From: Bacteroidia bacterium
Lineage (GTDB): Bacteria; Bacteroidota; Bacteroidia; AKYH767-A; OLB10
Length of the DNA: 64,000 nucleotides
Direction of reading: 5' to 3'
NCBI GenBank assembly: GCA_036274495.1
Contig: DASUFP010000039.1
Coordinates: forward strand, 11,303 to 75,302
Below, piece after piece: positions 7,575 to 31,551 of this stretch. Below the pieces are notes generated by a model. It was not told where the DNA came from. It saw only the letters and a list, made by a program, of their open reading frames with translations, and ran no database searches. The translations under genes and the position numbers were made by a program. The stretch's first letter is position 1; the number at the start of each line of letters is the position of its first letter.

Positions 7575-8180
7575 TAAAAATCCCCTTACAATTTGCTGCC
7601 GGGGATTTGTGAGGTTGACACCAGATTACCTCCCCCGCTTGCGCGGTGTCGGTGATCTGGTGTTGGGGGGCCGTTCTCCAATCCCTTTCCGCCGCTTCGC
7701 GGCTTCAGGGGATTTTTGTTTTTCCGCTCTTGATTCCAGATTACCTCCGCCGCTTCGCAGCGTCAGGGGATTTTTTGTTTTTCCGCTCTTGATTCCAGAT
7801 TACCTCCCCCGCTTGCGCGGTATCGGTGATCTGGTGTTGGGGGGCCGTTCTCCAATCTCTTGCCGCCGCTTCGCAGCATCAGGGGATTTTTGTTTTTCCG
7901 CTCTTGATTCCAGATTACCTCCCCCGCTTGCGCGGTGTCGGTGATCTGGTGTTGGGGGGCCGCTCACAATTCCCTTTCCGCCGCTTCGCGGCGTCAGGGG
8001 ATTTTTGTTTTTCCGCTCTTGATTCCAGATTACCTCCCCCGCTTGCGCGGTGTCGGTGATCTGGTTGGGGGGGGGCCGTTCTCCAATCCCTGGCCGCCGC
8101 TTCGCGGCGTCAGGGGATTTTTGTTTTTCCGCTCGCCCAGACTCGTCTGGCTCGCTTCAAAACAAAAATCCCCTCCGACT
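7575..8180. repeat. GC-rich tandem array of a structured 115-bp unit (~4.5 copies, one internally deleted 59-bp unit), ending in a long imperfect hairpin
   Basis: Units at 7621-7735, 7736-7794 (short), 7795-7909, 7910-8024 and 8025-~8134. Each unit holds the internal hairpins ccagattacc/ggtgatctgg and cgccgc-ttc-gcggcg. The array is bracketed by aaaatcccc (7578) and aaaacaaaaatcccct (8160-8173), the reverse complement of the unit motif aggggatttttgtttt. Confidence 0.85.
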
Positions 8181-8198
8181 TCGTCGGAAGGGATTGGT

Positions 8199-8215
8199 GA
8201 GGTCGCGAGCAGATT
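8199..8215. repeat. Distal att core: exact 17-bp direct repeat of the 3' end of tRNA-Cys (gaggtcgcgagcagatt)
   Basis: Identical to 49704-49720, which corresponds to the T-loop, 3' acceptor strand, discriminator and first C of the tRNA. Confidence 0.7.
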
Positions 8216-8274
8216 TCTGAGGGTCAGGGCTAATTGATTGATTTGACACGTTTTATGTCCATTTCCAATGAGCA

Positions 8275-8298
8275 GGTGAAGCAAAAGGTGAAGCAAAA
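8275..8298 (+). repeat. Candidate integrase arm-type sites (2x ggtgaagcaaaa) about 60 bp inside the distal att core
   Basis: Direct repeats ggtgaagcaaaaggtgaagcaaaa. The same motif family is found at 49563-49606 inside the other island end. Confidence 0.45.
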
Positions 8299-8325
8299 TG
8301 ACATTACATGTCCCATACAATGCAT

Positions 8326-11300
8326 TTAACGGGCTACGACAAATTTGAAATAGTACTTTTTTGCGCCGATTTGTAATGCTCCCAAATAAATACCATCATT
8401 CAAATTTTTAACATCCACCAAATAGGTACTTTCTTCCGGAGTTAAGCGTAGAGACCGTGTGCCTCCGGCAAGTTTCCCTTCAATGGTATAAATCTCAAGA
8501 TTAGTATTGAAAGACTTCTCAACATGTAACTCCAAAGTAAAACTGCCGGATGTAGGGTTAGGATAAATTGCCAAATTGTTATTGGAGTCTGAGTTTACCA
8601 ACCTTGGACTAATACAGATAGCAAGCTCTGAAGAAGTCAATGTACCGGAATTTAAGGATGTAAAATTCGCCAAATCACCCTCATTGCTAATAATCCCTGG
8701 ATTGTTTGTTTGTAAGTTTAAATTGGTTAACGTACTGGAGATATTGAGTTGGTTGCAGCCACTGTTACCTGTTGAATCAACTTTGACAATGTAGCCGGTT
8801 TGCGTTCCGGAATCAAGTATATGACCTGAAATAAAATACCCTCCATCCTGGCATTTTGTTAAAGATGATGCATGCTCATCAGTGAGGACATCACCATATG
8901 CCTTTGACCATATCAATACTCCGGTACTTGTAGTTCTGATGAGCAAAATCTGAGAACCATAACCCGAAACATTGCCGCTAAATGAAATCACATAGTCGCC
9001 ATTGTCTGCTTGAACAATTTCGCCTCTTTCATAGGAACTACTTATTGAAATCGGATTACTAATCCACTTAGACCAGGTCAGTGAACCATTAGCTCCAAGC
9101 TTCATCAGCGCAAATTTGTTATTGTAAGTCCCCATGACCATATACCCACCTTCAATAGATTTGACAATTGAACCACCTCCTATTTGGTCTGAAATATTAA
9201 AATGGGCCTTATTTTCCAATAAATTTCCCAATGTGTCATATTTCAAAAATAAGAATCCATCATAAAACCCATTGCCTGCATCATATTGCTCAACCGTTCC
9301 GATTGCTACGATTTCGTTATTGAATTGAATAATATCGCTAATAGAGCTGCTGTAACCATCAATAGTTCCGAAATTGTTTATCCAGTCCAGACTTCCTGAT
9401 GAGCCAATCTTTGCAACCATTGCTTTATACTCAAATGTTGCAGGGAAATACAATTTGCCACAAACCAAGTTCGCATTCGAGGTCATATTTATTACTTTGT
9501 TAAAGGTTGCCTGATAAGCGGGGTTCACAAAATTCGGGTCCTTTATTAAAAACCCATTTGCAATAACTCCTGCCGAATTAGCATGCATCAATATACCGCC
9601 AGTATAGCTATTGATTCCAGCGTTATATATTAATTGACCAGCACTGGAGGTGCCGCCACCGTTTGTCGGTAAAATATTCCAGGAATAGATAGTTCCAGTC
9701 GTCCAGTTATGTGCATTACCTTGGGATACACCATGAGCATCTGTTTTAATAATTAATGCATCTCCGGTTTGATTTGATATATTATTGTATAACCCAGTTA
9801 TAGTGTATCCTTGGTCAACATTTTGGAATGCATCGGTTAAAGCAAAGGCATTATTCACTTGTCGTTGAAAAGATATTGCTGGGCATAATTGACTTATTGT
9901 TGTTACTACTGACACTCTTGAACAGTTGAATCCATTAGTAACCGTGACAGAATACTGTCCGGAATCCTTTACCCATAAACTTTGAGCTGTTTCACCTAAT
10001 ATATCAATGTTGTTTTCCTTCCATTGATACGAATATGCATTTCCTATTGGAGCTACCAATTCTACACTATCGGGAGGACAAATACTTGACGAACCATTTA
10101 CAGTGATAGTTGCTGAAGGAGGCCCCGAAACAATTATTGTAGGTGAATTTCTCGTGCATCCGTTTGGACCAGTAATAGTGACTTTATAAGCGCCAGCCAT
10201 TGAAGCGTAATACGTTTGGTTTGTGGCACCAGAAATATTATTGCCATACCTCTTCCATTGATATGTATATCCAGTTCCTGTTCCCGTAGATAATAAAACT
10301 GAATCCCCAGTACAAAATCCTGTGTCCACGCTTGGTGTGATTGTGGCAGTAGGCAAGGGCAAGACTGTAACTAATATAGGATTCGACTTCTTTTTACAGC
10401 CACTTGAATTTGTGACCTCCACTTTATAGTTTCCGGTTGCTGTTGCTTGGTATGTTGAAGCAGTTGCACCGTTTAACGGATTGCTGTATTTATACCATTG
10501 GTAAGTGAGTCCTGAGCCCTGGTTTGCACTTAACGTGACATTACCTCCAGCACAAAATGTAGTGGCTCCTGAAGCGGTAATGCTTGCTGCGGGCTTGGGT
10601 ACAACGAATATCTCGACAGGTTGTGATTTCCTAAAACAGCCGTTGCTGTCTGTAACCAGAACTCTGTATTTACCGGCTGAAGTGGCCAGGTATGTTGAAC
10701 CCGATGTGGAATCAACCACATTACTGTATCTATACCACTTATAAGTATACCCTGTACCCACGTTGGCGTTTAGCGCTAAAGAGCTGCCAGCACAAATTGT
10801 TGTAGTACCTGCCGGAGTTATAGAGGCCGGTGGAGCTGATATTGATGTAACAAGTACAGGGGCTGAGTTTTTACTGCATCCGTTGGAATCAGTGACCCTC
10901 ACTTTGTAACTACCAGTTGTAGAAGCTGTATAACTGGAAGTTGTGGCTCCGTTTATTGCATTGCCGTATTTTGTCCATTGGTATGTCAATCCGAGCCCTG
11001 TGTTTGCATTAAGTACTACTGAGCCTCCCGCACAAAAATATGTGGAGCTAAGAGGGGTAGCGACTGCTTGTGGCAAAGAATGAACTGTAACTGGTAAAAA
11101 TGAAGATGTCGAACTACATCCTGAATTATTAGTTACAATTACTTGATAATTTCCACCAGTAGTGGCAGTATAAGAATCAGATGAAGCACCTTGAATTTCA
11201 ATTCCATCTTTTAGCCAACTGTATGTGTTTGTGCTACCTGTGTCAGTTTGAATAATCACGGAATTTCCGGAACAGAATGTTGTTGAACTTAATGGGGTTA

Positions 11301-14300
11301 TTGATGATGCAGGATTACCGACTACCGTTATATAATTGGGTATAGTAAGTGTATCTATCTTACCTGGAAAAGTTGCAATTAATGTGACATCGTATATTCC
11401 TGGAGTATTATATACAATTGATGGGTTGGGCAAAGTTGATGTTGAAGGTATACCTCCTGGGAATTGCCACATAACATTTGAAGCTACTGTAGATTGATTA
11501 ATAAATTCAACTATACCATTTGCACAAATCGAAGTATTATTGGCACCAATTCCTGCTATAAATATTGAAGTATCGCTATAGATGTGAATCGGCACAAATG
11601 CGGTAACACCATTATAAGACAGATTTAGAATAGAATCTCCTTGATTTTTTCCAATAATGAAGCCTTGTCCTAAATGCTGCGCAAGATTAGTGTCCAATGA
11701 AATTTGTAGATTTGGGTCATATGAAATATCTCTAATAATCCCATCACTAAATATTCCTTTGATATTTAATTTAGCAATGAGTCCTACAGTTAGTTCAAGC
11801 ACATTCGGTTCGGCGAATATTGAATCAATATAAGCATTGGTATTAACATTAATTTTTATTGAATCCAAACAGGTATAATTCAATGTATCACCACCCAAAC
11901 TAACCAAGTTGACTATTCCAATAGCTTCTTGAGGAATTATATAACTATACGTAAGATGTGCAGTGATAGAATCATGAAATTCCGGTTCAATAAAATTATT
12001 TCCGGCACCAAATAAAATTTTATTTACATTTCCATGACCTTGTACAGATACTGCAATTGTATCTCCAGCATTAAAACTTTGATAATTGCTTGGAAATTGA
12101 AAAGTTACACTATCGAGTAATGGCATTGAATATTGTATCGGCAATGAAACATTAATGGTTGCTGGATTAGGTTGAGGTTCATTAATTAGCCCTGGCTCAA
12201 ATCCATCCATTGTAAACTTTGATAAATCAATTGGACTACTATTAATTAAATCCGTTAATACTCCCAAGATGCTTGGATTTGATGAAGCTCCCATGTGGCA
12301 CTGGTCGCTATAATCAGTGTTACTAATTTGAAAGCTGGATTCTTGCGAATGAACATCTACGATGTTGTCATTCTCTTCGCCATTAAATATATCATGAACT
12401 GAATATGCATTTGCTGCAGCAAAAATAACAGCTCTGCAACCTCCATTTGATTCCAATATATTCTCATCTTGATTAGTTGAAATCAAATTTGAAGGCACTT
12501 TGTTCTGAATAGCAGTAGGAATATTTAAATTTGAAATTGCAGTACTATTTACTCTCAAATCTTCTATAGCCCCTTTATAAGGATTTCTTCCAGTTAGAAA
12601 CAGCATCGTTCTTACTTGGTCGTTATCTGGCCAACCTATGTTTCCATCAGGCCAATTCAAGTAATTTGCCATTTGAGAACCATAATGAGGTGTATTGACA
12701 GTAAGAAGTTTTTGAATTTCACCTTTATAATTTGAGCTTTGCAAATATAATCTTGCAAGTACTCCTCCCATGCTATGAGCAATTACTACTAATTTACCAC
12801 AGGAAAAATAATTTTGTCTTGCTTTATAAAATAAGTCTGTTCTACCATTTATTATTACAAATCTGTTTTGATTAAAATAGACATCATTTGTTGATTTATA
12901 ATCTAATCGAAGTGTAAGAAAGTTAGTTTGGTAGTTTACATCATTTGAGAATACGTTTCCAGGATATAAATTCGTAACAAGCAATTCCATTTCAAACTCC
13001 TTAAATGCATCTCTATCCCCCCACAATCCATGAACCATCATCAATGGAGCCCTATAAATGTGAATAGGGAAATTTATACCAGATATTGGTGTATTGCCAT
13101 TATATATTATTTGTAAGCTGCATTCTCTTTTTAATTGACTCAGCTCCATATATGTCGGATGATGATAAACGAATTCCAATTCATTTGTTCCAATTACTGT
13201 AGGTGTATCGAAATATCCATATTTCTCAATGTCGTTTTGAATTTGACCATTTTCATTAAGTAATCTCAAGTTAATTGTTGAAATATCTGTTGCAAAAACT
13301 CGAATTCTGGTCGCAGCAGAACCATCGGCACAGATTTTAACTGGATTTGATGTGGCAAATGGGCTACCAGCATAAAGTGTTAATGGCTGAGCAAGTGCAG
13401 GAATATTGCTAACTTGATTGATAAAAGTGATATCATTAACAGATGGAGGCAGAGTATTTACCGTCGCATATCCATAGTCACAATCATTACAGGTAGACTC
13501 GAACCCATTTATATAAACTTTACATGCATAATTGCCACTCACAGTTGCCGTGAATGAAGCATTTGCACCAAGAGCCGTTCCAGTACAAGAAGTTCCTGCA
13601 TACCATTTATACGCATAACTTCCACCTGAGCCTCCTGTAGCGATGCAAGTCATTAGTACTGACCCAGTCCCTGTATTATCATTTACATTTGAAGTTGGGC
13701 TTGAACAAGAAGATGTTATGGTTGCCATTCCATAGTCACAGGAAAAACAAGTTGATTCAAATCCTGAAATATATGCTTTGCAGGCATAGTTTCCGGATAC
13801 AGTTGTGAGATAAGTTGAGTTCGTTCCAATAGGAATTCCGGAACATGAAGTGCCACTATACCATTTGTAAAGAACACTACCACCAGACCCACCGGAAGTG
13901 ATGCATGTTAAAGTTACATTTGGATTGCCTGAACTATTATTCACTGTTGCAATAGGTGAAGTACAACCACCTGGTGCAATTAAATAGGGTCCACCACTGG
14001 TCATACCATCACTTACCCATCCGGTCAATTTTTGTGTTGTTCCTCCACTACTTGTATAGCAATTTGGTGTCAAATAAACTTCATACCAATTGTCCCCATT
14101 GATAACTTGTGGAGAAGAGGTGGTTCTTGCAAGCTTTTGATTTGGCTCAAAAGAAGCCCATTGGTAAGCATAACCAGTATTATATATCCATGTTTGTGAC
14201 CCGTTTGCAGAATTTTTGATTAATACTCCATTGATTGCGCTTGGCTGAACAATTAAATAATTATTTGGTGTACTGGAAATCCCAAAGAAATTTGTAGCCA

Positions 14301-14565
14301 CAAATGCCGTTGTAGGGTATCCTGCTTGTCCATGTGCATTAGGTATATCAAATTCGTACCAAGTATAACCACAGTTTGAACCAGTTGTGTTTATTACCAC
14401 AAATGAATGAGGGTCATTAACTTGTCCAAAAGATGTTGCTGACGTGCAATTTGCAGCACGGATATTTACATTTGTTCCATTGCATTTGTAGACAGATTGG
14501 GCAAAGGAATTTGAAAAAAGCAAGCAAAGATTAACTATTGTTAAAACGAGTGTTATACCTTTCAT
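8326..14565 (-). CDS. Giant (2079 aa) T9SS-secreted protein with an alpha/beta-hydrolase (lipase-like GxSxG) domain, beta-propeller-like repeats and multiple Ig-like repeats
   Basis: N-terminal signal peptide MKGITLVLTIVNLCLLFSNSFAQ. The AHSMGG nucleophile elbow lies in the central region. Repeated ...YQWxKxG..I.GATxSxYTAxxxGxYxVxVTxxNGC... Ig-like modules follow. The C-terminus IYPNPTSGSFTLEL...YLGALQIGAKKYYFKFVV is a T9SS C-terminal domain. Confidence 0.75.
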   Translation of the reverse strand: MKGITLVLTIVNLCLLFSNSFAQSVYKCNGTNVNIRAANCTSATSFGQVNDPHSFVVINTTGSNCGYTWYEFDIPNAHGQAGYPTTAFVATNFFGISSTPNNYLIVQPSAINGVLIKNSANGSQTWIYNTGYAYQWASFEPNQKLARTTSSPQVINGDNWYEVYLTPNCYTSSGGTTQKLTGWVSDGMTSGGPYLIAPGGCTSPIATVNNSSGNPNVTLTCITSGGSGGSVLYKWYSGTSCSGIPIGTNSTYLTTVSGNYACKAYISGFESTCFSCDYGMATITSSCSSPTSNVNDNTGTGSVLMTCIATGGSGGSYAYKWYAGTSCTGTALGANASFTATVSGNYACKVYINGFESTCNDCDYGYATVNTLPPSVNDITFINQVSNIPALAQPLTLYAGSPFATSNPVKICADGSAATRIRVFATDISTINLRLLNENGQIQNDIEKYGYFDTPTVIGTNELEFVYHHPTYMELSQLKRECSLQIIYNGNTPISGINFPIHIYRAPLMMVHGLWGDRDAFKEFEMELLVTNLYPGNVFSNDVNYQTNFLTLRLDYKSTNDVYFNQNRFVIINGRTDLFYKARQNYFSCGKLVVIAHSMGGVLARLYLQSSNYKGEIQKLLTVNTPHYGSQMANYLNWPDGNIGWPDNDQVRTMLFLTGRNPYKGAIEDLRVNSTAISNLNIPTAIQNKVPSNLISTNQDENILESNGGCRAVIFAAANAYSVHDIFNGEENDNIVDVHSQESSFQISNTDYSDQCHMGASSNPSILGVLTDLINSSPIDLSKFTMDGFEPGLINEPQPNPATINVSLPIQYSMPLLDSVTFQFPSNYQSFNAGDTIAVSVQGHGNVNKILFGAGNNFIEPEFHDSITAHLTYSYIIPQEAIGIVNLVSLGGDTLNYTCLDSIKINVNTNAYIDSIFAEPNVLELTVGLIAKLNIKGIFSDGIIRDISYDPNLQISLDTNLAQHLGQGFIIGKNQGDSILNLSYNGVTAFVPIHIYSDTSIFIAGIGANNTSICANGIVEFINQSTVASNVMWQFPGGIPSTSTLPNPSIVYNTPGIYDVTLIATFPGKIDTLTIPNYITVVGNPASSITPLSSTTFCSGNSVIIQTDTGSTNTYSWLKDGIEIQGASSDSYTATTGGNYQVIVTNNSGCSSTSSFLPVTVHSLPQAVATPLSSTYFCAGGSVVLNANTGLGLTYQWTKYGNAINGATTSSYTASTTGSYKVRVTDSNGCSKNSAPVLVTSISAPPASITPAGTTTICAGSSLALNANVGTGYTYKWYRYSNVVDSTSGSTYLATSAGKYRVLVTDSNGCFRKSQPVEIFVVPKPAASITASGATTFCAGGNVTLSANQGSGLTYQWYKYSNPLNGATASTYQATATGNYKVEVTNSSGCKKKSNPILVTVLPLPTATITPSVDTGFCTGDSVLLSTGTGTGYTYQWKRYGNNISGATNQTYYASMAGAYKVTITGPNGCTRNSPTIIVSGPPSATITVNGSSSICPPDSVELVAPIGNAYSYQWKENNIDILGETAQSLWVKDSGQYSVTVTNGFNCSRVSVVTTISQLCPAISFQRQVNNAFALTDAFQNVDQGYTITGLYNNISNQTGDALIIKTDAHGVSQGNAHNWTTGTIYSWNILPTNGGGTSSAGQLIYNAGINSYTGGILMHANSAGVIANGFLIKDPNFVNPAYQATFNKVINMTSNANLVCGKLYFPATFEYKAMVAKIGSSGSLDWINNFGTIDGYSSSISDIIQFNNEIVAIGTVEQYDAGNGFYDGFLFLKYDTLGNLLENKAHFNISDQIGGGSIVKSIEGGYMVMGTYNNKFALMKLGANGSLTWSKWISNPISISSSYERGEIVQADNGDYVISFSGNVSGYGSQILLIRTTSTGVLIWSKAYGDVLTDEHASSLTKCQDGGYFISGHILDSGTQTGYIVKVDSTGNSGCNQLNISSTLTNLNLQTNNPGIISNEGDLANFTSLNSGTLTSSELAICISPRLVNSDSNNNLAIYPNPTSGSFTLELHVEKSFNTNLEIYTIEGKLAGGTRSLRLTPEESTYLVDVKNLNDGIYLGALQIGAKKYYFKFVVAR

Positions 14566-14813
14566 GTGGTTTTCGGTTAGGTGATTGATGAAAGATTTTA
14601 ATGATTACAGGTGTTAATAAAATCTTGGTCATAAGATTATAAAATATCCATGTAACTATCAATACCCGAATACATTGCTCCTTTAAATTACCTATATAGA
14701 TTAAAAACACTATTATATTAATATTCAATGCTTTACCACAAATGGCCTTAATCTCACCATATCCCAATCCCAAATTAAATTGAATTATCATTCATTAAGG
14801 ACTATTATATTTT

Positions 14814-15614
14814 TTGGCTAAGAAGTACATTTATCGCCTAAATATTGTGATTTTTAGGTTTAGAAAAGTTCAACCCATGAATAATGTCATTCCAATTGTG
14901 ATTGCCTTTCATCCTTCAACCAGCAGATTCATTCACATTGATGAAGCCAGTAATGGACTATCTTGTAATTGTGTTTGCATTCAATGCAATGAAAAGCTTG
15001 AAGCCATACAAGGCAATAAAAGAAAGAGGCATTTCCGGCACCACGTTAATACCAACTGCGTAGGAGCAAAGGAAACTGCCCTTCATGAGTTAGGTAAGCA
15101 AATACTGGTTGAAAATAATCGGATTAATATCCGTAACCATGGTATCATTACATATTCCAATGCAATTGCTGAAAAAAGATTAGAAAAATATCGACCAGAT
15201 GTTACTGCGTTTTATGAAGGTCAACCTATATATTTCGAAATTTTTGTGTCTCATGCTGTTGATAAAGAGAAGGCCAAATTTTTCTCTGACAACAAAATTA
15301 AATCCTTAGAAATTGATTTAAGCAAAAGCTTGACGGCCAATTTTGATGAAATAAAACAAATGGTTTTGGAAAAGACTCAACTGCAAACCGTATTCTATTG
15401 GGAAGATATTTCCGAATTGCCTTTAATTGATAGGAAGTATGATGTCAGATTTTTTGAAAGCCTTATTTTATTCTTAGTTATTCTCTTGGCTTTCATTGGC
15501 ATCCTAAAACTCATGAAAAACAAAAACAAATTAAATTATACCTTCATCGCAAAATCTTCATATCAAAAGCTGAAAAACAAACCTTATGGCCTACGAAAAA
15601 CCTATTACAATTAA
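14814..15614 (+). CDS. CoiA-like family protein (competence protein CoiA-like predicted nuclease) with C-terminal hydrophobic segment. The start could be the downstream Met at 14874
   Basis: Motif LSCNCVCIQCNEKLEAIQGNKRKRHFRHHVNTNCVGAKETALHELGKQIL matches the CoiA N-terminal Zn-ribbon/HFAH/EH signature. The gene overlaps the next gene by 29 bp. Confidence 0.5.
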   Translation: MAKKYIYRLNIVIFRFRKVQPMNNVIPIVIAFHPSTSRFIHIDEASNGLSCNCVCIQCNEKLEAIQGNKRKRHFRHHVNTNCVGAKETALHELGKQILVENNRINIRNHGIITYSNAIAEKRLEKYRPDVTAFYEGQPIYFEIFVSHAVDKEKAKFFSDNKIKSLEIDLSKSLTANFDEIKQMVLEKTQLQTVFYWEDISELPLIDRKYDVRFFESLILFLVILLAFIGILKLMKNKNKLNYTFIAKSSYQKLKNKPYGLRKTYYN

Positions 15615-17361
15615 GGATGCGATTGAGAATATTCAAAAGAAGAAGTACGTTCTTCCATCAATTCAAAGAGAATTTGTATGGGAGGCAAATCAAATTGAAA
15701 AATTATTTGATTCTCTGCTTAGAGACTATCCTATTAGCACTTTTCTATTCTGGAATGTTGAAAAACTAAAAATTAATGAATTTCAATTTTATGAGTTTCT
15801 TCAACATTACCATGAGCGTGATGCGACTCATAACCCAAAGGCATCTTTAGCTAATGACGAGGATGTAATTGCAATTCTTGATGGACAACAACGCTTAACT
15901 TCACTTTTCATAGCCTTGAAGGGCACATATGCTGAAAAATTACCATATTATTCCTGGGATAGCAATAAAGCTTTCCCCAAGAAAAAGTTATACATTAACT
16001 TAATTAAGGAAGCCGAAGATGTTGAAATGTTATACAATTTTAAGTTCCTAACTGAAGAGGAAATCAAAAATCAATCTGACGGCTTTTATTGGTATGAAGT
16101 AAGTAATATTTTCGACATCAAGGAATATCCAGATGTAATGACCTTTTTAATTTCGAGTGGATTGACTGATTCCTCCAAATATACAGATGAACAGATTCGA
16201 TTCTCTATGAATACCATGAATAATCTGTATAATGCTATTCATCAAAAAGGAACAATTAATTTCTACCTGGAGCGAAGTGATAAACTTGATAAAGTGTTAC
16301 AGATATTCATCAGAATTAACAGTGGTGGAACAAAATTGAGTTATTCTGATTTATTATTGTCTGTAGCAACTGCACAATGGCAAGAAAAAGATGCCAGGCA
16401 AGAAATTCATGATTTTGTTGACGAATTAAATGGTATAGGCCAAGGTTTTGATTTTGACAAAGATTTCGTTTTAAAATCCTGCTTAGTATTAGGGGATTTT
16501 AATGATGTAAAATTTAAAGTTGACAATTTTACTAAAACCAATATGCTAAAGATTGAGTCTCTGTGGAATAATATTACTCAATCTGTTTACACCGCAGTAA
16601 AATTGGTATCAAATTTTGGATTTAATCGTTCAACCCTTACATCCGCAAACACCCTCATTCCAATTGCATACTATTTAATGAAGAATAATCATGACGAGGC
16701 CTTTTTGACCAAGACCAAGTTTGAGCTTGAACGACAAAAAATACGACAATGGCTTCTTAGAGTATTACTCAAAAGAGTTTTTAGTGGCACACCTGATAAT
16801 CTTTACCCACAATTAAGAAAACTTATCAATGACGGCAATGGCGAATTCCCTCTCCAATCAATAATTGAATTTTATAGAGGCACAAATAAGAGTATAATAT
16901 ATAATTCAGATGATATAAACACTCTTGTTGAAATGGAATATGGAAACAAGTTTTCGTTTGCTGCTTTAGCAATAATTTATCCGGAACTGAACCTCGTTCA
17001 TACGTTTCATATGGACCACATCCATCCAAAAAAATTCTTTAGTGAAGTAAAGCTCAAGAAGAGGGGTATAATTCCCGAACACATTAAATTCTTCCTTGAA
17101 AATTATAACAAACTGAGTAATATTCAACTATTGGAAGGCAATTTGAACAAACAAAAAAATGGAACAGAATTATCCTCATGGTTAAATGATAATTTCAAAA
17201 CCAGCTCAGCATCTCAAGCATTTAAAATGCTTCATATGATACCTGAAAACATTTCTTTAGAATTGGATAATTTTCAGCAATTCTACAATGTGAGAAAATC
17301 GCTATTGGTAAACAAGTTTTCGGAAATATTACTTGACCCAACACATGCAAATGCAAATTAA
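15586..17361 (+). CDS. GmrSD-family type IV (modification-dependent) restriction endonuclease (DUF262 ParB-like NTPase + DUF1524 His-Me nuclease)
   Basis: N-terminus YVLPSIQREFVWEANQIEKLFDSLLRDYPISTFLFW is the DUF262 signature. C-terminal HMDHIHPK is the DUF1524 HNH-like motif. Confidence 0.75.
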   Translation: MAYEKPITIKDAIENIQKKKYVLPSIQREFVWEANQIEKLFDSLLRDYPISTFLFWNVEKLKINEFQFYEFLQHYHERDATHNPKASLANDEDVIAILDGQQRLTSLFIALKGTYAEKLPYYSWDSNKAFPKKKLYINLIKEAEDVEMLYNFKFLTEEEIKNQSDGFYWYEVSNIFDIKEYPDVMTFLISSGLTDSSKYTDEQIRFSMNTMNNLYNAIHQKGTINFYLERSDKLDKVLQIFIRINSGGTKLSYSDLLLSVATAQWQEKDARQEIHDFVDELNGIGQGFDFDKDFVLKSCLVLGDFNDVKFKVDNFTKTNMLKIESLWNNITQSVYTAVKLVSNFGFNRSTLTSANTLIPIAYYLMKNNHDEAFLTKTKFELERQKIRQWLLRVLLKRVFSGTPDNLYPQLRKLINDGNGEFPLQSIIEFYRGTNKSIIYNSDDINTLVEMEYGNKFSFAALAIIYPELNLVHTFHMDHIHPKKFFSEVKLKKRGIIPEHIKFFLENYNKLSNIQLLEGNLNKQKNGTELSSWLNDNFKTSSASQAFKMLHMIPENISLELDNFQQFYNVRKSLLVNKFSEILLDPTHANAN

Positions 17362-17411
17362 TTGACCTTTCACTATAACTTTATTAGATGCTCAAAAACA
17401 ATAAATATAAA

Positions 17412-18278
17412 TTATTCGGAATTCAACCGTTTAATATTTTTTGATAATGAAATCTGATTCATAAAATCCATTAAAAACCCATGGAATTTTAAATAGTATA
17501 AATATGGGGCACTTTCCACTCTATTAATTATTTGTTTTTGAGTATCATATTGCATACCTCCCCTATGAGTTTTGTTTCTCATCAATTTAATCTCTTCAAA
17601 GGTCAACAGAATGTCCTTAAATCGTTCTTCAGACAATACTTCCTCGTCAAAGTATAAGTAATACACCAGAAGTCGGAATCTTTGAAGAATCTCCTTGATG
17701 TCATTTTTCGTGGCATCTTTGAAATAATTGTCATAATCCGCTCCAGTATAATATTTATTACTTGGCTTAAATTTTATTCTTAGAATTGTTGACTCCAAAG
17801 AAAACCCTTTCCTTGATTTATCCTGCTGCTGGGTAATTTTATTATACCAAGTATTGGTAATCAGTTGTAACTTTCTATCTAATTTAAATTTATCAAATAA
17901 AGTTGAGTTTTCATAAATTGCATTTATAACACACTCCAGTTGCTGATATATGGAAACACAAAATCGCTCAAAATCATCCCTTCGTTTTTGATGTTCCATT
18001 TCAACAAAATCACTAACCAATTTTCTTTGAACTTCCGTTGACAATAGGTTATAAATACCTAAACATCCATAAAATTCCTGAGCTTGCTTGAATATGACCG
18101 GCTCCACTGCCTGTTCATGCACCAACCTTATAACTGAATTAGCAAATTCCTTCCCTGCCAGAGTGTAGAACTTCTCCTTAGCAGAAATTACATCTGAATG
18201 CTCCTTACCCAGTGTCCGTTCAAGAATATCTATTTGCTCTTGAATATCCATTAAGAATCGCAGCCTGTTCAATTCCAT
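17412..18278 (-). CDS. Retron-associated hypothetical protein (candidate effector), translationally coupled to the reverse transcriptase. No recognizable domain
   Basis: The start codon overlaps the RT stop at 18278. The 288-aa protein is alpha-helical and unassigned. Confidence 0.5.
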   Translation of the reverse strand: MELNRLRFLMDIQEQIDILERTLGKEHSDVISAKEKFYTLAGKEFANSVIRLVHEQAVEPVIFKQAQEFYGCLGIYNLLSTEVQRKLVSDFVEMEHQKRRDDFERFCVSIYQQLECVINAIYENSTLFDKFKLDRKLQLITNTWYNKITQQQDKSRKGFSLESTILRIKFKPSNKYYTGADYDNYFKDATKNDIKEILQRFRLLVYYLYFDEEVLSEERFKDILLTFEEIKLMRNKTHRGGMQYDTQKQIINRVESAPYLYYLKFHGFLMDFMNQISLSKNIKRLNSE

Positions 18279-19450
18279 TACAATTTATATTTTAACATAG
18301 CATTTTCTACCCCTTCAGATTCCCATATATTCAATATTTCAAGAATTGATTTGGTTTCAACATTCGAGTTTAAATCAATTGAAACGGATTCTGGTGTTTT
18401 CATTACCAGGCTCTGGTATTTCTCAAGCATTCGCTTTACAATAACATCATCCTTGCCTCTCACCATACTGATAAAATCAATCCGGCCCTTTAAAACATTG
18501 GTCAAGGACTTTCTTGTTGAATCTATCAGATAAACCTTGGTTTTATCAATATCTGAATTTAGTCGCTTTTGTGCGAATTCAAACCCAAAGCTATCCCATA
18601 CATATAATAGTAATCTGGTATAACCCATGTAACTTTGATTAACGTTCACTTTCCTATTAACAATTAAGCCGGTTACTTCCTGGCGATTTTTCCACGATTG
18701 TAGGCGTACTTTAGTTTCATTGATATTATACTTTTCATCCTTCACTATTTTTTCAATTTTGTCGATGAAGTCATCAATGAAAATATCTTTGTTCGAAGAA
18801 AATGTTATATCATCAGCATACCTCGAATACCTACATCCATTCTCTTTACTAAGCTTAAACAATTTTCGGTCGAGCCTTTGGCAGACAATATTCGTTAATA
18901 TTGGTGATGTAGGAGCCCCTTGCGGTAGAACCCCATTTTCACAACATAGGTTTGCAATCAAAAATGCAAGCGGCTCTTTATCTCCGGAGAGATTGAATGG
19001 GTTTAACCCTAAAACCGTTTTGACACGACGGAAATCTGTTGAAGGAAAGAATTCCTTTAAATCAATATTGTAAACAAATGCTTTATCTACATGAATCTTC
19101 GCATTATGGACAATACTTTTTTGATAAACAAATCCGGTAGCACAATGGTGAGGATTAAAAATAGCAGTAAAAATAACTGAAATGGCTTTCTGTAATAATT
19201 TCAGCGAAGCTATAGGAGCAGAAATATCTCTTGTATCACCATTCTTCTTTGGAATTTGAAATGTTTTATAGCGGGAGTTCTTTTTAAAAGCAAGGAATCG
19301 TAGAGTTTTAGCCTCAAACTTAATAGGCTTTTTTACATTTGGGTAAAGCTTTCCTAAAACATGATTAATTAATCCCGTCAGTTGCTTTTCATTTAACACC
19401 TGGGGATACCGTTTCCGAATTTCGTTTAATAATTCCTTTTCAATTTTCAT
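18278..19450 (-). CDS. ret: Retron-type reverse transcriptase
   Basis: RT motifs FQIPKKNGDTRDISAP, LPQGAPTSP and YSRYADDITFSS (YADD). Retron-specific NAxxH (VHNAKIH) and VTG (RQEVTGLIVN) motifs are present. The true start is the Met of MKIEKE at 19450 (the track ORF extends upstream into the ncRNA). Confidence 0.8.
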   Translation of the reverse strand: MKIEKELLNEIRKRYPQVLNEKQLTGLINHVLGKLYPNVKKPIKFEAKTLRFLAFKKNSRYKTFQIPKKNGDTRDISAPIASLKLLQKAISVIFTAIFNPHHCATGFVYQKSIVHNAKIHVDKAFVYNIDLKEFFPSTDFRRVKTVLGLNPFNLSGDKEPLAFLIANLCCENGVLPQGAPTSPILTNIVCQRLDRKLFKLSKENGCRYSRYADDITFSSNKDIFIDDFIDKIEKIVKDEKYNINETKVRLQSWKNRQEVTGLIVNRKVNVNQSYMGYTRLLLYVWDSFGFEFAQKRLNSDIDKTKVYLIDSTRKSLTNVLKGRIDFISMVRGKDDVIVKRMLEKYQSLVMKTPESVSIDLNSNVETKSILEILNIWESEGVENAMLKYKL

Positions 19451-19453
19451 AAA

Positions 19454-19649
19454 ATGGGTGCCCGATGGATTTTCTCTTATGGATGAACACAGCCTTTCTT
19501 TCAAAAAAAAGAAAAACTTTAAGCATGTAATGAAACTGTTCTTCCAGGTTTTCAACGCCAAAGTGCGAGCGCAGAATCCACGTAGGAACATTACAAATAA
19601 CCATCAGCAATCGTGATGTAGAATCAAAATCTCTTATTCGGGCACCCAT
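19454..19649 (-). ncRNA. msr-msd: Retron msr-msd non-coding RNA (candidate) bounded by 12-bp a1/a2 inverted repeats
   Basis: The inverted repeat atgggtgcccga (19454-19465) and tcgggcacccat (19638-19649) flanks ~170 nt immediately upstream of the RT start, as in known retrons. Confidence 0.5.
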
Positions 19650-19679
19650 GATACACACAATGATAAATAAAATAATCAA

Positions 19680-20666
19680 TTAATTTAGAAAGGTTGGGGG
19701 ATTGATTCTCAAATGATTAGTAAGTTTTTGTGTGCCAGGTAAACTCTGTCCACCATCATACCACCTCTGGTCTGCAGCAGCAATCTTCTTCATCCGGGCT
19801 TCCCCAATCTTCTCAATCATTTTAACCTTCCGGTCATAGTTTGATTCCGGGTGCTTCATTTTTAGTAAAACCACCAGAAATTCTACCATCATCAATAGTC
19901 CGGTAAAAATGAAATACATGATTCCCATAGCCCAGTCTGAAAACACCAGTTCAAACGTAGCCTTAATCCTGTTTAACAACATTCCTTCTCCAAATGAAGC
20001 TCTGACAAGTTGTTCAGAAGAATCCTTTTCGGAATCTGATAGCTGTTGAAGTTTTACCATGTCGGCATTGCGATTCTGGAATTCAGCATACTGTTTATCT
20101 GCTAATAAACTTTTCAAGGCCGTCACTTTTCCACTACCATACTTTCCGGTTCCATATGTACCATCGGATTCAGCTTTAACATCCTGTACCCCTCGTTGCC
20201 AATCCTGGAAAGCAACATCCGATTTCTGTTGCGCTTCGACTATTCTGGCTGCAAAATCCGATTCCACTTTTTTCCTTTCTGCATCGACTTTTACTTCCAA
20301 AGTTTGAGCAAGGTGATGGTCGATATCTTCTTTGAATACAATCTCATCAATGATAACAGAGCCGATTGTTGCAACAAAAAATCCCAGCAGCAATCTGATA
20401 ACACTGATGGTACCACAACAATCAGCAAGTATAATGGAACGGTCAATCAGGAAGACAACAAATCCTGCAATTGAGCCGGCAATAATTCCATTGAATGCTG
20501 ACATATGGAAAATCTGAGTAGCCATACCGTAACCGGTGAGGAACCATAAGATGACAGGGAGAAAAAGTGCGTTAGCAAACATCATCACTTTTTTCTTACT
20601 GGTAGGTGTATCGTTGACTAACATGTTGTAGTCATCGCCGGTGATTTTAGAGGAGAATTTGAGCAT
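19680..20666 (-). CDS. Membrane protein with N- and C-terminal transmembrane helices flanking a coiled-coil region (DUF4407-like architecture)
   Basis: Hydrophobic segments FANALFLPVILWFLTGYG, IIAGSIAGFVVFLI and GIMYFIFTGLLMMVEFLVVLL. The central region is Lys/Glu/Gln-rich and coiled-coil-like. Confidence 0.55.
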   Translation of the reverse strand: MLKFSSKITGDDYNMLVNDTPTSKKKVMMFANALFLPVILWFLTGYGMATQIFHMSAFNGIIAGSIAGFVVFLIDRSIILADCCGTISVIRLLLGFFVATIGSVIIDEIVFKEDIDHHLAQTLEVKVDAERKKVESDFAARIVEAQQKSDVAFQDWQRGVQDVKAESDGTYGTGKYGSGKVTALKSLLADKQYAEFQNRNADMVKLQQLSDSEKDSSEQLVRASFGEGMLLNRIKATFELVFSDWAMGIMYFIFTGLLMMVEFLVVLLKMKHPESNYDRKVKMIEKIGEARMKKIAAADQRWYDGGQSLPGTQKLTNHLRINPPTFLN

Positions 20667-20725
20667 GGTTAATGAGGTTAAAAGGTTAATAATTTTGTTG
20701 GTTGAATCATGTTTTAACAGGGATG

Positions 20726-21343
20726 TCAGTTAAACATCCCTGTTGTTTGAGCGAACAGTTTCGCCTCCTGGTACTCCCTGCATCCACGCAGGTAGCCTTC
20801 CCGGTATTGATGAATGGCTTTCATGACCAGTCCTTCATCTTCCGCCGAATAAGCCTTCTCAGCCTCCAACTTACTGATGTTGGATTCAATCTCTGAAATA
20901 CGGAGGTCAAGTTGTTCGCTCAGCCTTTCGGATAAGCCACGGGTCTCAATCTCTTGGTTGCGCAGTTGGAAAATCTCCTGCTTGCGAACATCAATTGCCC
21001 GGTCGATAATCTGACGAAAACTTGCCCGGATGATTGAAAGTTTCTGTTGCAGAAACTCCGTTGTATGCATGGCATAACCATCATTAAACCCGGTAGAAGA
21101 AAAATCAGCCTGCATGAACTCCTGCAGTGGACTCAATTGCTCTTGTTCCGGTTGTTCAACCGGCGGAGGTGTATTATCCACGAACAACCCTTTCAACAGG
21201 TCATTTGCGAATTCAGTTGAAGAATTGGATTCAACTGGTTGAGTTTCCAGTTGAGAATTGCTGGGCTCAGTTTTCGCTCCGAAGCCGAAGAGCTTTCTCA
21301 AGAAGTTCATAAGTGAATGGGTTAAAAGGTTAAAATTTTTCAT
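20726..21343 (-). CDS. Hypothetical coiled-coil protein
   Basis: 205-aa ORF that overlaps the upstream HNH gene by 14 bp. Heptad-like charged C-terminal half. Confidence 0.45.
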   Translation of the reverse strand: MKNFNLLTHSLMNFLRKLFGFGAKTEPSNSQLETQPVESNSSTEFANDLLKGLFVDNTPPPVEQPEQEQLSPLQEFMQADFSSTGFNDGYAMHTTEFLQQKLSIIRASFRQIIDRAIDVRKQEIFQLRNQEIETRGLSERLSEQLDLRISEIESNISKLEAEKAYSAEDEGLVMKAIHQYREGYLRGCREYQEAKLFAQTTGMFN

Positions 21344-21692
21344 TTGAAGGTGAGTTAATAGGGAAGGATGGTATTGTGAATAATTGATGCCCCCTTTCGT
21401 GGCATTCCCGGCACAGGGTTACCAGATACTTGTTCGCATATTGCCAGGGTAATCGTTTCTGGCCTGTTTTGGCGCAGAAATGGTACTGCCGGTGGTGGAC
21501 ATCCAAATACTTCGTAGAACCGCAATTCAGGCATTTATGTCCATCCCTGTTCAGGATTACTTTCCGCTTCTCCCTCCATTGAGTAAATTGAAGCAGTCTG
21601 GCGTATTCCGGTTGATTATTGATTATTTCTGACATCAGATTAGAATTTGTTGTGATGCCAGTCCATTGACAAAAATGTGTCCAGATTGGCAC
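21330..21692 (-). CDS. HNH endonuclease (small standalone His-Me finger nuclease). The likely start is MSEIINN near 21635
   Basis: HKCLNCGS...LDVHHR...LVTLCRECHERGH is the Cys4 Zn-finger HNH signature. Confidence 0.7.
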   Translation of the reverse strand: MPIWTHFCQWTGITTNSNLMSEIINNQPEYARLLQFTQWREKRKVILNRDGHKCLNCGSTKYLDVHHRQYHFCAKTGQKRLPWQYANKYLVTLCRECHERGHQLFTIPSFPINSPSNEKF

Positions 21693-21699
21693 CTATTTG

Positions 21700-22120
21700 T
21701 ATATCAATTGATTATAATTTTATCATCTATCATATTATGATTTATAATATCATTTTATGATATTATATCAACGTCTTTCGAAGTTCAATTGAACAGAATA
21801 TGATGTCTTTTCCCATTTGAGGAGCTTGGAAAAGCGTGATGAAAAACAGTAAAATCCTGATATTCAGTTAGTAAACGAAACCGACAGTTAACCGCAGTTA
21901 AGGGTAATAAAGAAAAGCATAGTAAACTGAAACTTGAATAAACTAAAAGCAGAATGAACCTAAACAGAAAAATAAACCTATCCGGACCTTAACCTCAGTT
22001 AAGGGTATTATAGTAAACTACAGTAAAGTAAATCATAGGAAAGATTAATAAACCCAAAGAAAAAAAAAGCAGAGTATAGGAAAACCCGCACCTTAACCTG
22101 GCTTACCGGTCACACACCAA
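21700..22120. repeat. AT-rich intergenic region with palindromic ATCATATTATGAT-like elements and ~100-bp imperfect direct repeats (cagttaagggta... x2-3)
   Basis: ttaaccgcagttaagggtaa at 21890, ttaacctcagttaagggtat at 21989 and ccttaacctggcttacc at 22091. The stretch lies upstream of the minus-strand HNH operon. Confidence 0.35.
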
Positions 22121-22132
22121 ACCTCAATTTAA

Positions 22133-22513
22133 TTAACCAACAGGAAATTTTATTTTAAAGGCTGTTGAACAAAATGCCTGAACAATATAAGACAACATTT
22201 CTGAATCCATTTTTTGAGTACGGAATTTTTTCTGGATATGGTATTTCCCATTAAATCGAACAACTGAGAAAACCGCCTTTTCCGTACAGTCCGAAGAAAT
22301 CACAAAAAAATATTTGCACTTGATAAAATGACCCCACCGGTCAGCAACCGGTTCCAGCTTATAAATACGGTAGCGGTATATTTCGGCAACCTTTTCCGAA
22401 CTGCATCCTTCCAATGCCTTTTGAATAAATCCCGAAGGCAATTCAATTGGAATTAAATCATCGTTCATAAATATACCATACGAATAATGATGATTGCTTA
22501 TTGATAGTAACAA
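22133..22513 (-). CDS. Hypothetical protein
   Basis: 126-aa ORF with no recognizable motif. Confidence 0.35.
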   Translation of the reverse strand: MLLSISNHHYSYGIFMNDDLIPIELPSGFIQKALEGCSSEKVAEIYRYRIYKLEPVADRWGHFIKCKYFFVISSDCTEKAVFSVVRFNGKYHIQKKFRTQKMDSEMLSYIVQAFCSTAFKIKFPVG

Positions 22514-22540
22514 ATCGAATTTTTATTTCGTAACTTAATA

Positions 22541-23077
22541 ATGAATCCTGTAAAAGGCTCCCAAGATAAAATAAACTGGGATGAGGTCATTATTTATGTG
22601 AGACCGGTAATCAGGAAGGCAATCAACAAACATGTTTTTTCAAAAGACCGGTTTCTTCTCCAGGACATCGAACAGGAAATCATTATCAAAATATACAACA
22701 AATTCCATTTGTTCAATCAGGATAAATCATTAAACGATTGGGTATATATTGTCTCAGTAAATCATATTCTGGATGTATTGAGAAAAATAAAACGAACAAC
22801 AGTTACTAACGAAAATCACTCTCGTTCAATTGATAATTGCCCTATACCAAGGGTTGAATCAATAAAGGTTTCTCCTTCAATTGAACTTTTAAACCAACTA
22901 CCTATAAAGTACAAAGAAATTATCATTAAAAAATACATTCAGGGATACAAACAAAAAGAAATCGCCATTCAGCTGGGTTTACCCATCGGTACAGTTTCAT
23001 CCCGAATTCAGAAAGGAATCAGCATTCTGAAATGCATGGTTCAAAATGAAAGCTTATCCCATTCAGACTGCCTGTAA
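22541..23077 (+). CDS. RNA polymerase sigma-70 family (ECF-type) sigma factor
   Basis: Region-2-like DIEQEIIIKIY...DWVYIVSVNHILDVLRK and region-4 helix-turn-helix YKQKEIAIQLGLPIGTVSSRIQKGISILK. Confidence 0.6.
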   Translation: MNPVKGSQDKINWDEVIIYVRPVIRKAINKHVFSKDRFLLQDIEQEIIIKIYNKFHLFNQDKSLNDWVYIVSVNHILDVLRKIKRTTVTNENHSRSIDNCPIPRVESIKVSPSIELLNQLPIKYKEIIIKKYIQGYKQKEIAIQLGLPIGTVSSRIQKGISILKCMVQNESLSHSDCL

Positions 23078-23652
23078 AAGTAGAATTCCACGGGCATATC
23101 ATTAATCACTTTTAAATAAATCCCGTCATCTTCGTTCAATTTCAGATATTTTACTGAACACCTTTCATTTGCATGATTTGTGATTTTATTTTCGTCAGGA
23201 ATATACCGGGAATATTCTTCAATTGAACAATCATTTATTGATTCATTTTTAAATAGGTCAATGTGAGAATAAACATATCGGAAAAGAAACGGGTTTGACT
23301 GCATGGTCACCGGTTGAAAGAAATTAATATCTTGATTCGGTATAATGTCACTCATTACATTACTTTGTTCTGAATTATATCTGCCGTTATGCTTTAACTC
23401 AACTGGCTGAAAATAATAAACTGAAAAGGTTTCCCTTTCAATCATACTGAATAAAAGCACTTTTACTGAAGTATCATATTCAATTGAAGAGGAATCATTG
23501 TTGAGGACATTTCTGAGGTGAGCTTTTACATCCTCAAATTGAAAAATAATATCAGGTAAGCTTGATTCAACTGAATACCATCCATCAGGGGTTCGGAAAA
23601 ATTCTACGAAAAAGAGGTCATCCCCAACTGCATTTTTAGCAAAGTATCTCAC
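23041..23652 (-). CDS. Hypothetical protein
   Basis: 203-aa ORF convergent with the sigma factor gene. Confidence 0.35.
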   Translation of the reverse strand: MRYFAKNAVGDDLFFVEFFRTPDGWYSVESSLPDIIFQFEDVKAHLRNVLNNDSSSIEYDTSVKVLLFSMIERETFSVYYFQPVELKHNGRYNSEQSNVMSDIIPNQDINFFQPVTMQSNPFLFRYVYSHIDLFKNESINDCSIEEYSRYIPDENKITNHANERCSVKYLKLNEDDGIYLKVINDMPVEFYFYRQSEWDKLSF

Positions 23653-23800
23653 CTATAAATAATTTATCAGGAGAAAAGTGGATAATCCTGGATTATGATA
23701 CTTTTCTCCTGGGCTTCTATTTCATGCAGGAAACTAAACAGTTGAAATACATATTATCTCAACCATTCAAAACTGAAAGGAAACGCCATTTATCCACTTT

Positions 23801-24388
23801 TTAAAGATTTAAATACGCATCTTTGATTATTTGCTGGCTAAGCCCAATGTATTTTCTGGTTATCGCTGTTGACGTGTGGTTGAAAATAGAGGATAATAAA
23901 ATTAACGATGCTTCACTCCGGTCATTAATTTCATAAACCCTACGCCCGAATGTTTTACGAAGGGTATGACTACTTGGATTCTGTACTTTTATTTTAAATT
24001 TATAAAACATTTTGTGCAACCGTCGATTGATGTGTTGTCGAGTATATGGCTTCCCATTCCGGCTGCAGAAAACGAATTGATTTGCATCCTTATTGTTCTG
24101 AATATTCAAATTGATAAATACCAGGTTGATAATTTCAATTAGTGAATTATTCAGAGCGATTTTCCTGAACTTTCCTGTTTTCCCTTCATGAAGGGCAATT
24201 TCATTTTTGTTTATTAATTGCTCCCACTTCAATTGAAGAATATCTCCGATTCTCATTCCACAGAAACCACCAAGACTAACAAAGAGGAGCAATTTATATT
24301 CACCTGTTTTTTTCAATGATTCGATTAAAACCAGAAATTGTCCCCAATCCATACCGGAGCATTCTGTAAGTTGATTTTGCTTTGCCAT
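23801..24388 (-). CDS. Tyrosine recombinase catalytic domain only (N-terminally truncated integrase remnant, probably non-functional)
   Basis: GMRIGD (box I Arg), HTLRKTF (His-x-x-Arg) and RKYIG (catalytic Tyr) are present in 195 aa with no core-binding domain. No ORF continues upstream. Confidence 0.55.
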   Translation of the reverse strand: MAKQNQLTECSGMDWGQFLVLIESLKKTGEYKLLLFVSLGGFCGMRIGDILQLKWEQLINKNEIALHEGKTGKFRKIALNNSLIEIINLVFINLNIQNNKDANQFVFCSRNGKPYTRQHINRRLHKMFYKFKIKVQNPSSHTLRKTFGRRVYEINDRSEASLILLSSIFNHTSTAITRKYIGLSQQIIKDAYLNL

Positions 24389-24533
24389 GTTGTTTTTTAA
24401 TAGATACGTTTCATTTTCCCCGTTTAATTATGGAAAGTGAAACTCCAATTGGTAAATCCACTAATCGACAAAACAAAAATGAATGATATTCAATTGATTG
24501 ATAAAAACGGGTTCACTTATACCAGAAGTGAAC

Positions 24534-24947
24534 TTATTCAACAGGGATTCCGGTCAATTCCGACAAGCGAATTCGCTCATGATTGGTGGTTTCGATGAAA
24601 AATTTTAACCAGATGTATTTTTCTCTGACAAAGTACGGTCTGATAGCTTCCATTATCCAATTTATCTGCTTTGGATTGTCTGACGAGCAATAATGTTCAA
24701 ATGGTAGTGAAATGAAATGCATGCTATCCTGATGACCTGATTCAATCCCAACCAGGCTGATATTGAAGAATGATATTCTGTTTAGTAAAGTTGGAAGGTC
24801 ATCAAATGAACAAAGCACAAAGTCGGAATCGTGGACCATTCCTTCCAGTATAAATTCAATCATTAACACCTTCTCAAATTGCAATGCAGGTGATGTGAAT
24901 AAAAGTGAATTGAATTTTATTCTTGCCAGTTTTGTAATCAGTACCAT
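24534..24947 (-). CDS. Hypothetical protein
   Basis: 137-aa ORF. Confidence 0.3.
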   Translation of the reverse strand: MVLITKLARIKFNSLLFTSPALQFEKVLMIEFILEGMVHDSDFVLCSFDDLPTLLNRISFFNISLVGIESGHQDSMHFISLPFEHYCSSDNPKQINWIMEAIRPYFVREKYIWLKFFIETTNHERIRLSELTGIPVE

Positions 24948-24990
24948 ATTTCAGTAATACGAAACCGACTACAAATCTGATTAATTGAAT

Positions 24991-26439: not shown

Positions 26440-26498
26440 TATGTATCAGTATTTGACATGTAAATGTAATTATTGATAGACCCAAAAATAATATATAT

Positions 26499-31544: not shown

Positions 31545-31551
31545 TAATCTC

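Follow-up and report, generated by a model that had tools for sequence, protein, structure and literature searches.

A tandem array of a structured 115-bp unit lies next to tRNA-Cys in an uncultured Bacteroidota, outside the genomic island that has integrated into this gene. Its sequence is conserved above the neutral rate, its pairing is asymmetric between the two strands, its first hairpin covaries, and its copy number differs between relatives. There is, in our estimate, about an even chance that a conserved plus-strand RNA-end module has been amplified in tandem at this site, where it would serve either as a multicopy small RNA (sRNA) or as a stack of terminators. The array is an undescribed yet unsurprising element, a structured intergenic repeat or candidate sRNA of narrow spread among uncultured Bacteroidota. 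All positions refer to the window, that is, the whole 64,000-nucleotide stretch of DNA that was analysed. Its host is known from a MAG and encodes T9SS sorting domains; the closest GTDB representative has a GltX only 73% identical.

Layout of the array and its place beside tRNA-Cys

A repeat search resolves positions 7615–8134 (520 bp) into four full 115-bp units and one internally deleted unit of 59 bp (Table 1). Tandem Repeats Finder (TRF) reports 7747–8134 as a repeat of period 115 with 3.4 copies, 92% matches, 0% indels and a score of 667; together with the in-register alignment of the copies, this agrees with the roughly 4.5 copies and single 59-bp copy described in an earlier note on this DNA. 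Full units are 91–96% identical to the reference unit and all are in register. One 26-mer from the unit is found four times where 0.00 copies are expected; for the 16-mer AGGGGATTTTTGTTTT, the figures are six and 0.26. Each unit runs straight into the next, and no unique sequence separates them. In the short unit (spacings 58/59; 30.1 bits, E = 1.5e-4 with the covariance model described below), the deletion, as read from the sequence, lies between two look-alike motifs, CCTCC(C/G)CCGCTT, one at the apex of each hairpin. The array has a GC content of 0.51–0.62 compared with 0.31–0.39 on both flanks, as the note's remark on contrasting composition had implied, and an AT skew of about -0.5, with T strongly in excess over A on the plus strand. 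The copy number derives from one short-read MAG contig assembly; exact-protein look-ups with the flanking genes returned no second assembly or strain that spans the array, only contigs from the same sample (SRR25158403) that end before it. A second tandem repeat is present at 1780–3128, with a period of 240 bp, about five copies and 82% matches. Its period is divisible by 3, and it probably encodes an 80-aa domain repeated within a large protein; the reading frame of this protein extends beyond the window.

On the plus strand, one unit folds into two hairpins with an energy of -50.6 kcal/mol (z = -3.7), in keeping with the two hairpins per unit that had been predicted. Hairpin 1 comprises 10 bp, with the stem CCAGAUUACC/GGUGAUCUGG; its lower stem, CAGAUUA/UGAUCUG, is conserved, and an inner stem-loop reads C(UUGC)G. 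It is followed by a G-rich, single-stranded linker, UGUUGGGGGGCCG, and by a second hairpin, T2, for which an interrupted stem of 8+5 bp followed by UUUUUGUUUUU is predicted. The module is hence a 10-bp hairpin, a linker and an intrinsic-terminator-like hairpin, on the strand opposite to tRNA-Cys. Unit 5 occupies the ancestral copy position, which is common to the window and the related locus L084. The unit junctions and the adjoining spacer hairpin have the short direct repeat TCTGG..GAGCGG in common.

Terminator-like hairpins flank the array on both sides. T2 on the plus strand points toward T1, the tRNA's own terminator, and the spacer hairpin between them is kept in L084 with one compensatory pair change. 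A simple terminator scan called T1 and did not call the T2 copies, which have interrupted stems. T1, T2 and the left-hand hairpin T3 resemble each other. The tails of T2 and T1 form an inverted repeat (8112–8127 and 8159–8174; 16 nt, 100% complementary, 31 nt apart). The hairpin said to terminate the array is therefore present, with 16 perfect base pairs, and its distance from the 17-bp att core is 24 bp. The T1 and T2 tails are exact or near-exact complements within each genome and differ between genomes (TTTTTGTTTT, TTTTTATTTT and TTTTTTATTTG among the window, L084, L004 and L022), a pattern that suggests concerted evolution or selection for pairing. The whole array is bracketed by a direct repeat of the tRNA 3' end plus terminator (7576–7627 versus 8164–8215, 71% identity). 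Part of the left-hand copy, 7611–7627, doubles as the outer arm of the first hairpin 1. Farther left, the minus strand of 7549–7566 reads CTCTCGCAAACCGATCAT, similar to the tRNA acceptor 3' strand CTCGCGACC and to a pseudo-end in L004, GCGCAAACC; it may be a third, older remnant of a tRNA 3' end or a chance likeness.

Table 1 Features of the array, the island and tRNA-Cys (positions in the window)
Feature	Position	Strand	Details
T3, terminator-like hairpin AAATCCCCGGCAGCAAATTGTAAGGGGATTTTTAT	7576..7610	-	Diverged T1 copy; left bracket of the array; direct-repeat family D4
Degenerate tRNA-Cys 3' end/att core AATCTGGTGTCAACCTC	7611..7627	-	13/17 matches to AATCTGCTCGCGACCTC, by-eye comparison
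Unit 1, 115 bp	7615..7729	+	Hairpin 1 7621-7660, G-rich linker, T2 with U-run 7680-7723; 107.3 bits
Short unit, 59 bp	7730..7788	+	5' arm of hairpin 1 fused to apex and 3' arm of T2
Unit 3	7789..7903	+	Hairpin 1 7795-7834, T2 7854-7897; 106.1 bits
Unit 4	7904..8018	+	Hairpin 1 7910-7949, T2 7969-8012; 110 bits
Unit 5, 116 bp	8019..8134	+	Longer G-run; hairpin 1 8025-8064, T2 8085-8128; 101.4 bits
Spacer hairpin, core CCAGAC/GTCTGG	8128..8166	.	Between convergent T2 and T1
T1, native intrinsic terminator of tRNA-Cys	8167..8195	-	13-bp stem, GAA loop, U-run; terminator scan
attR core, 17 bp	8199..8215	.	Displaced original tRNA-Cys 3' end; repeat family D12
Integrated island, 41.5 kb	8216..49703	.	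Tyrosine integrase 46588-47922
tRNA-Cys (GCA)	49703..49775	-	Last 17 nt (49704-49720) = attL core

The 17-bp direct repeat GAGGTCGCGAGCAGATT marks the two ends of the island, and the full core occurs nowhere else; att identity ends exactly at 17 bp. The island's integrase is of the Bacteroidetes type. Since attR lies between the array and the island, the array is DNA that natively follows tRNA-Cys and does not belong to the island. Reading downstream from the array on the plus strand, one meets T1, the att core and then, on the opposite strand, the 3' end of the gene for a 2079-aa T9SS protein. Just inside both island ends are 12-bp direct repeats, (A)GGTGAA(G/A)CAAA (8274–8298 and 49584–49606), which are probably arm-type binding sites of the integrase. 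Other integrase islands occupy the same tRNA-Cys site in L010, L019, L027 and L110; in L010, TGTTTCACC repeats also follow tRNA-Cys, pointing to a related island there. The presence of several islands with at least two types of arm repeat (TGTTTCACC and ATGTTTCAG) identifies tRNA-Cys as an integration hot spot in this clade.

The 41.5-kb element in tRNA-Cys is a defence island. It encodes a GmrSD-type HEC-05 nuclease (15586–17361), a retron-type reverse transcriptase (18278–19591; best PADLOC matches RT-Protease_XI and RT-TIR_XII) adjoined by a DUF4407 protein (19680–20666), an RtcR-like CARF-AAA-HTH protein (24991–26439), a type I-like methyltransferase/specificity fusion (27845–30391) and a D12 adenine methyltransferase (47944–48789). 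The 2079-aa protein at the attR end (8326–14565, minus strand) is secreted and combines PKD, PGAP1-like lipase and T9SS sorting domains, an unusual cargo for a defence island.

Relatives, constraint and covariation

DNA downstream of tRNA-Cys was taken from 46 loci and searched with nhmmer, which returned four loci with the architecture of the window. The closest, L084 (GltX 90% identical, E = 1.4e-20), is an island-free JGI metagenome contig in which T1 directly follows tRNA-Cys, with the spacer hairpin, T2 and the G-run after it; at least these elements are present, and the contig ends in the G-run. L004 (GltX 73%, E = 5e-13) has one full module and a second piece consisting of T2 only, L022 (GltX 62%, E = 1.5e-6) has three diverged copies spaced ~170–180 bp apart, and L024 (GltX 62%, E = 1.7e-5) has one copy. 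Copy number of the module differs among L004, L022 and L024, from 1 (L024) to 3 (L022), with 4.5 in the window; the check for the unit in relatives that the earlier note had proposed finds it beside tRNA-Cys in L004, L022 and L024, in differing numbers. When 8216–49703 is removed from the window, the remaining sequence is colinear with L084 (88% identity over 307 nt). This colinear empty site indicates that the first unit is older than the present island.

Two further loci, L047 and L049, are without hairpin 1 but retain T1, the spacer, T2 and the motif GGCCCCCCAACA. Most relatives examined have no module, including several with 64–73% GltX identity, and a search with the 199-aa protein encoded on the left flank of the array yielded no relative above 49% identity. 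Other rearrangements were seen at the same gene. In L047 (12000–12250), the last 16 nt of tRNA-Cys and the terminator are near-identically duplicated ~115–150 nt downstream; L058 (~10960–11200) has a similar duplication, with a run of N between the copies. Downstream of tRNA-Cys in L015 (6290–6531), there is a ~145-bp tandem repeat within which the contig stops; its unit consists of a tRNA 3' end split by a 61-nt GC-rich C(GAA)G-hairpin insert, followed by the terminator.

Comparison of the window with L084 provides a measure of constraint. Over the 129 nt that follow the tRNA, identity is 80.5%, compared with ~48% at fourfold-degenerate sites (0.49 in GltX and 0.47 in FolB); the spacer upstream of tRNA-Cys is 88% identical. 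At the larger distance of L004, with GltX 73% identical and divergence saturated, both arms of hairpin 1 are nevertheless identical to those of the window.

Covariation of hairpin 1 was assessed over its 10 pairs in a set of only seven sequences from four lineages. In this alignment, 98.5% of cells are paired, and at three pairs both partners vary; covariation scores 0.319 compared with 0.125 in shuffled alignments, and none of 500 shuffles reached the observed score. As a control, registers slid by 1–3 columns gave pairing in 21–44% of cells. Ten of 67 cells are G·U on the plus strand, among them a U·G that is invariant in 7/7 sequences; on the tRNA-sense strand, these cells become A·C mismatches and the calculated pairing falls to ~84%. 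Consistent with a plus-strand orientation, the minimum free energy of the module RNA is lower on that strand in nine of ten homologues, and in the low-GC relatives a U-run follows the T2 homologue on the plus strand in all cases. The seven sequences hence display the compensatory changes and strand-specific G·U pairs by which a conserved structured RNA is recognized. The spacing between the arms of hairpin 1 varies from 3 nt in L022 to ~18–19 nt in the window and L004, which a folded single strand tolerates but a dimeric double-stranded-DNA operator would not. Read in the tRNA-sense direction, hairpin 1 resembles a tRNA T-arm with an insertion, and on this likeness att/tRNA ancestry could account for part of its conservation.

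Searches for known families, coding potential and promoters

At the gathering threshold, the sole Rfam 15 match in the window is tRNA-Cys. Lowering the cut-off to E <= 10 for 7300–8500 added only chance sub-threshold matches of 15–22 bits. CRISPR direct-repeat families scored at best 17–19 bits compared with gathering scores of 42–48, and no cas genes were present among the ORFs scanned in the window. CRISPR arrays require unique spacers and the tRNA-Cys array has none, as the earlier note had recognized. Integron attC sites, dif/Xer sites and IS200/IS605 hairpins were considered and set aside, with no matching consensus sequences or partner genes seen. A literature search found nothing relevant on tRNA-Cys-linked repeats or on tandem sRNAs in Bacteroidetes/flavobacteria.

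ORFs of 77–131 aa overlap the array. A protein-coding repeat was rejected because 115 cannot be divided by 3, so that the frame rotates between copies. The 131-aa ORF has no homologue at E <= 1e-3 among 5.8 billion proteins, and the array ORF gives no Pfam family above threshold; the note had likewise dismissed these ORFs as artefacts. A 57-aa plus-strand ORF at 7363–7536 was considered as an upstream gene with the array as its possible 3' UTR; it belongs to no family and matches only short repeated stretches in long proteins, and is unlikely to be a gene.

We built a covariance model from eight module copies; over 1.44 Mb (the window plus 90 loci, 91 sources), it found no copies away from tRNA-Cys, and neither hairpin recurs anywhere else in the window. 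GTDB species representatives contain no exact match to a 20-mer of the unit. The one match of this 20-mer in JGI metagenomes (L003) was discarded as chance, falling inside a high-GC coding region. Hairpin and linker patterns gave no matches in IMG/VR, or chance ones with unrelated flanks, and the flanking ORFs that were scanned include no transposase. The idea of a satellite-like element, raised in the same note, thus finds no counterpart elsewhere in the window, the 90 related loci, IMG/VR, the GTDB representatives or the JGI metagenomes.

Bacteroidetes-type promoters have a -7 box with the consensus TAnnTTTG. On the plus strand of 7300–8300, in or upstream of the array, no exact TAnnTTTG is present; the only candidates, each with one mismatch, lie within the tail of T2 (GATTTTTG) and at 7335 (TACTTTTC). 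The sole exact box in this interval, TAAATTTG at 7428–7435, lies on the minus strand downstream of T3 and is a possible promoter for the minus-strand genes to the left.

Among known systems, the LhrC1-4 sRNAs of Listeria offer a close analogy in form to a set of sibling RNAs. Like the array, they are ~100-nt head-to-tail units, each with its own intrinsic terminator (a putative one in the array), a structured 5' part and a single-stranded linker, and their copy number differs between relatives. LhrC1-4 are tandem sibling sRNAs in which each copy has a demonstrated promoter and known targets, whereas the array is a candidate sRNA without an evident promoter, and its units are only ~20 nt apart. 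BIME-2/REP arrays of enterobacteria are similar in their ~100-bp tandem units with two imperfect palindromes, their location on the 3' side of genes and near terminators, and their variable copy number; REPs, however, are dispersed in hundreds of copies and associated with RAYT transposases, whereas the module was found only beside tRNA-Cys. CIMEs and other tRNA att remnants share the tRNA 3'-end hot spot and the two direct copies of a tRNA 3' end as brackets. The array differs from them in that its period is not bounded by att cores, and its module is present and conserved at the empty site and has no arm-type sites. Type III antitoxin (ToxI) and CRISPR arrays are also tandem non-coding repeats with predicted RNA structure, but ToxI units measure ~34–45 nt and immediately precede a toxN-type gene, and there is no such gene here.

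Competing explanations and a proposed origin

Among the alternatives, the one that deserves most attention holds that the array is a neutral, copy-number-unstable duplication of terminator-rich intergenic DNA that makes no product, its hairpins being terminators and remnants of tRNA-derived palindromes and its apparent conservation mirroring only the terminator zone of the tRNA. We regard this as possible, if on the unlikely side. It would fit the missing exact -7 box on the plus strand of 7300–8300, the mutual likeness of T1, T2 and T3, the many relatives without the module, a recent expansion as implied by 92–96% likeness of the copies, and the TCTGG..GAGCGG junctions, which suit slippage or unequal exchange. 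Yet T2 and the linker lie past the tRNA's own terminator and are still well above the ~48% identity of neutral sites, hairpin 1 is unchanged in L004 despite saturated divergence, and neither the U·G asymmetry nor the compensatory changes are expected of inert DNA. The earlier note had also raised the scar of repeated integration and excision, and a broader form of this idea, a CIME-like remnant of earlier elements at the hot spot with units multiplied by integrase-mediated accretion, is improbable in our judgement. The present island did not leave the array as its scar: T1, the spacer hairpin, T2 and the G-run are already in place in L084, where no island has inserted. Nor do scars account for the 115-bp period, as the inner unit junctions have only AATCTGG, or 7/17 bases, in common with the core. 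Homology between the brackets runs past the tRNA into the terminator, whereas att identity of the present island stops at 17 bp; the module has none of the island's arm-type sites; and conservation above neutral at an empty site is unlike a decaying scar. What speaks for such an origin is that the brackets are diverged direct copies (71%) of the tRNA 3' end and terminator, that L047 has a near-identical duplicate and L015 tandem pseudo-tRNA-3'-ends, and that tRNA-Cys has been targeted repeatedly (the window, L010, L019, L027 and L110). Given this duplicate of tRNA 3' end and terminator that brackets the array, the locus may still have had an old att-related origin.

The remaining alternatives carry less weight. 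A dispersed palindromic element of the REP/BIME or MITE kind that happens to cluster here is very unlikely: the alternation of two different palindromes in a ~100-bp tandem unit at a gene 3' end resembles the architecture of BIME-2 arrays, and the tails of T1 and T2 pair as a perfect inverted repeat of 16 bp, but there are no other copies in the 64-kb window or away from tRNA-Cys in 1.44 Mb, searches of GTDB representatives, JGI metagenomes and IMG/VR for exact words gave nothing beyond chance matches, no RAYT or transposase gene lies among the neighbouring ORFs that were scanned, and the position is conserved across species. That the array is an assembly artefact, or the region protein-coding, we likewise consider very unlikely. 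The source is a short-read MAG with no second assembly across the array, the L084 contig breaks in the G-run, and ORFs of 77–131 aa do overlap the repeats; however, the copies differ at specific positions and one has a clean internal deletion, as real paralogous copies would, and the rotating frame of a 115-bp period, the empty search of 5.8 billion proteins and the lack of a Pfam family argue against coding.

We therefore return to the RNA-end module, amplified locally, as the preferred explanation. Of the classes named in the earlier note, a small-RNA or terminator array is the best supported, since in each unit a terminator-like hairpin with a U-run comes after hairpin 1. In this lineage, the module natively sits just downstream of tRNA-Cys on the opposite (plus) strand and, from the look of its hairpin, linker and putative terminator, would form the 3' end of a plus-strand transcript. 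Its most likely product would be a short non-coding RNA kept as several sibling copies, if transcription is assumed; as a minimum role, the copies would act as a terminator stack that stops transcription running antisense into tRNA-Cys. Amplification may have begun by slippage or unequal crossing-over between the junction repeats TCTGG...GAGCGG, microhomology of the kind that seeds tandem duplication, and later expansion may have proceeded by unequal exchange between the 92–96% identical copies. A more elaborate version is quite unlikely: the array would belong to an undescribed family of tRNA-Cys-linked antisense sRNAs in uncultured Bacteroidota with a T-arm/att-derived 5' hairpin, whose copy number would tune expression of the tRNA-Cys 3' end or the use of attB by tyrosine-integrase islands, for example by occluding attB or acting as its decoy. 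Under this version, the module DNA would mimic the T-arm/att region of the tRNA, and the expansion to 4.5 copies would be tied to carriage of the 41.5-kb defence island.

The tRNA-Cys array does not overturn current understanding. It accounts for spurious ORF calls of 77–131 aa and marks a spot where short-read assemblies break. Even as a terminator stack, it sets the true chromosomal side of the tRNA-Cys hot spot and with it the correct boundaries of the islands that integrate there. If transcribed, it would add an unclassified structured RNA family to a phylum with poorly charted small RNAs, and would represent a natural case of copy-number expansion among sibling sRNAs.
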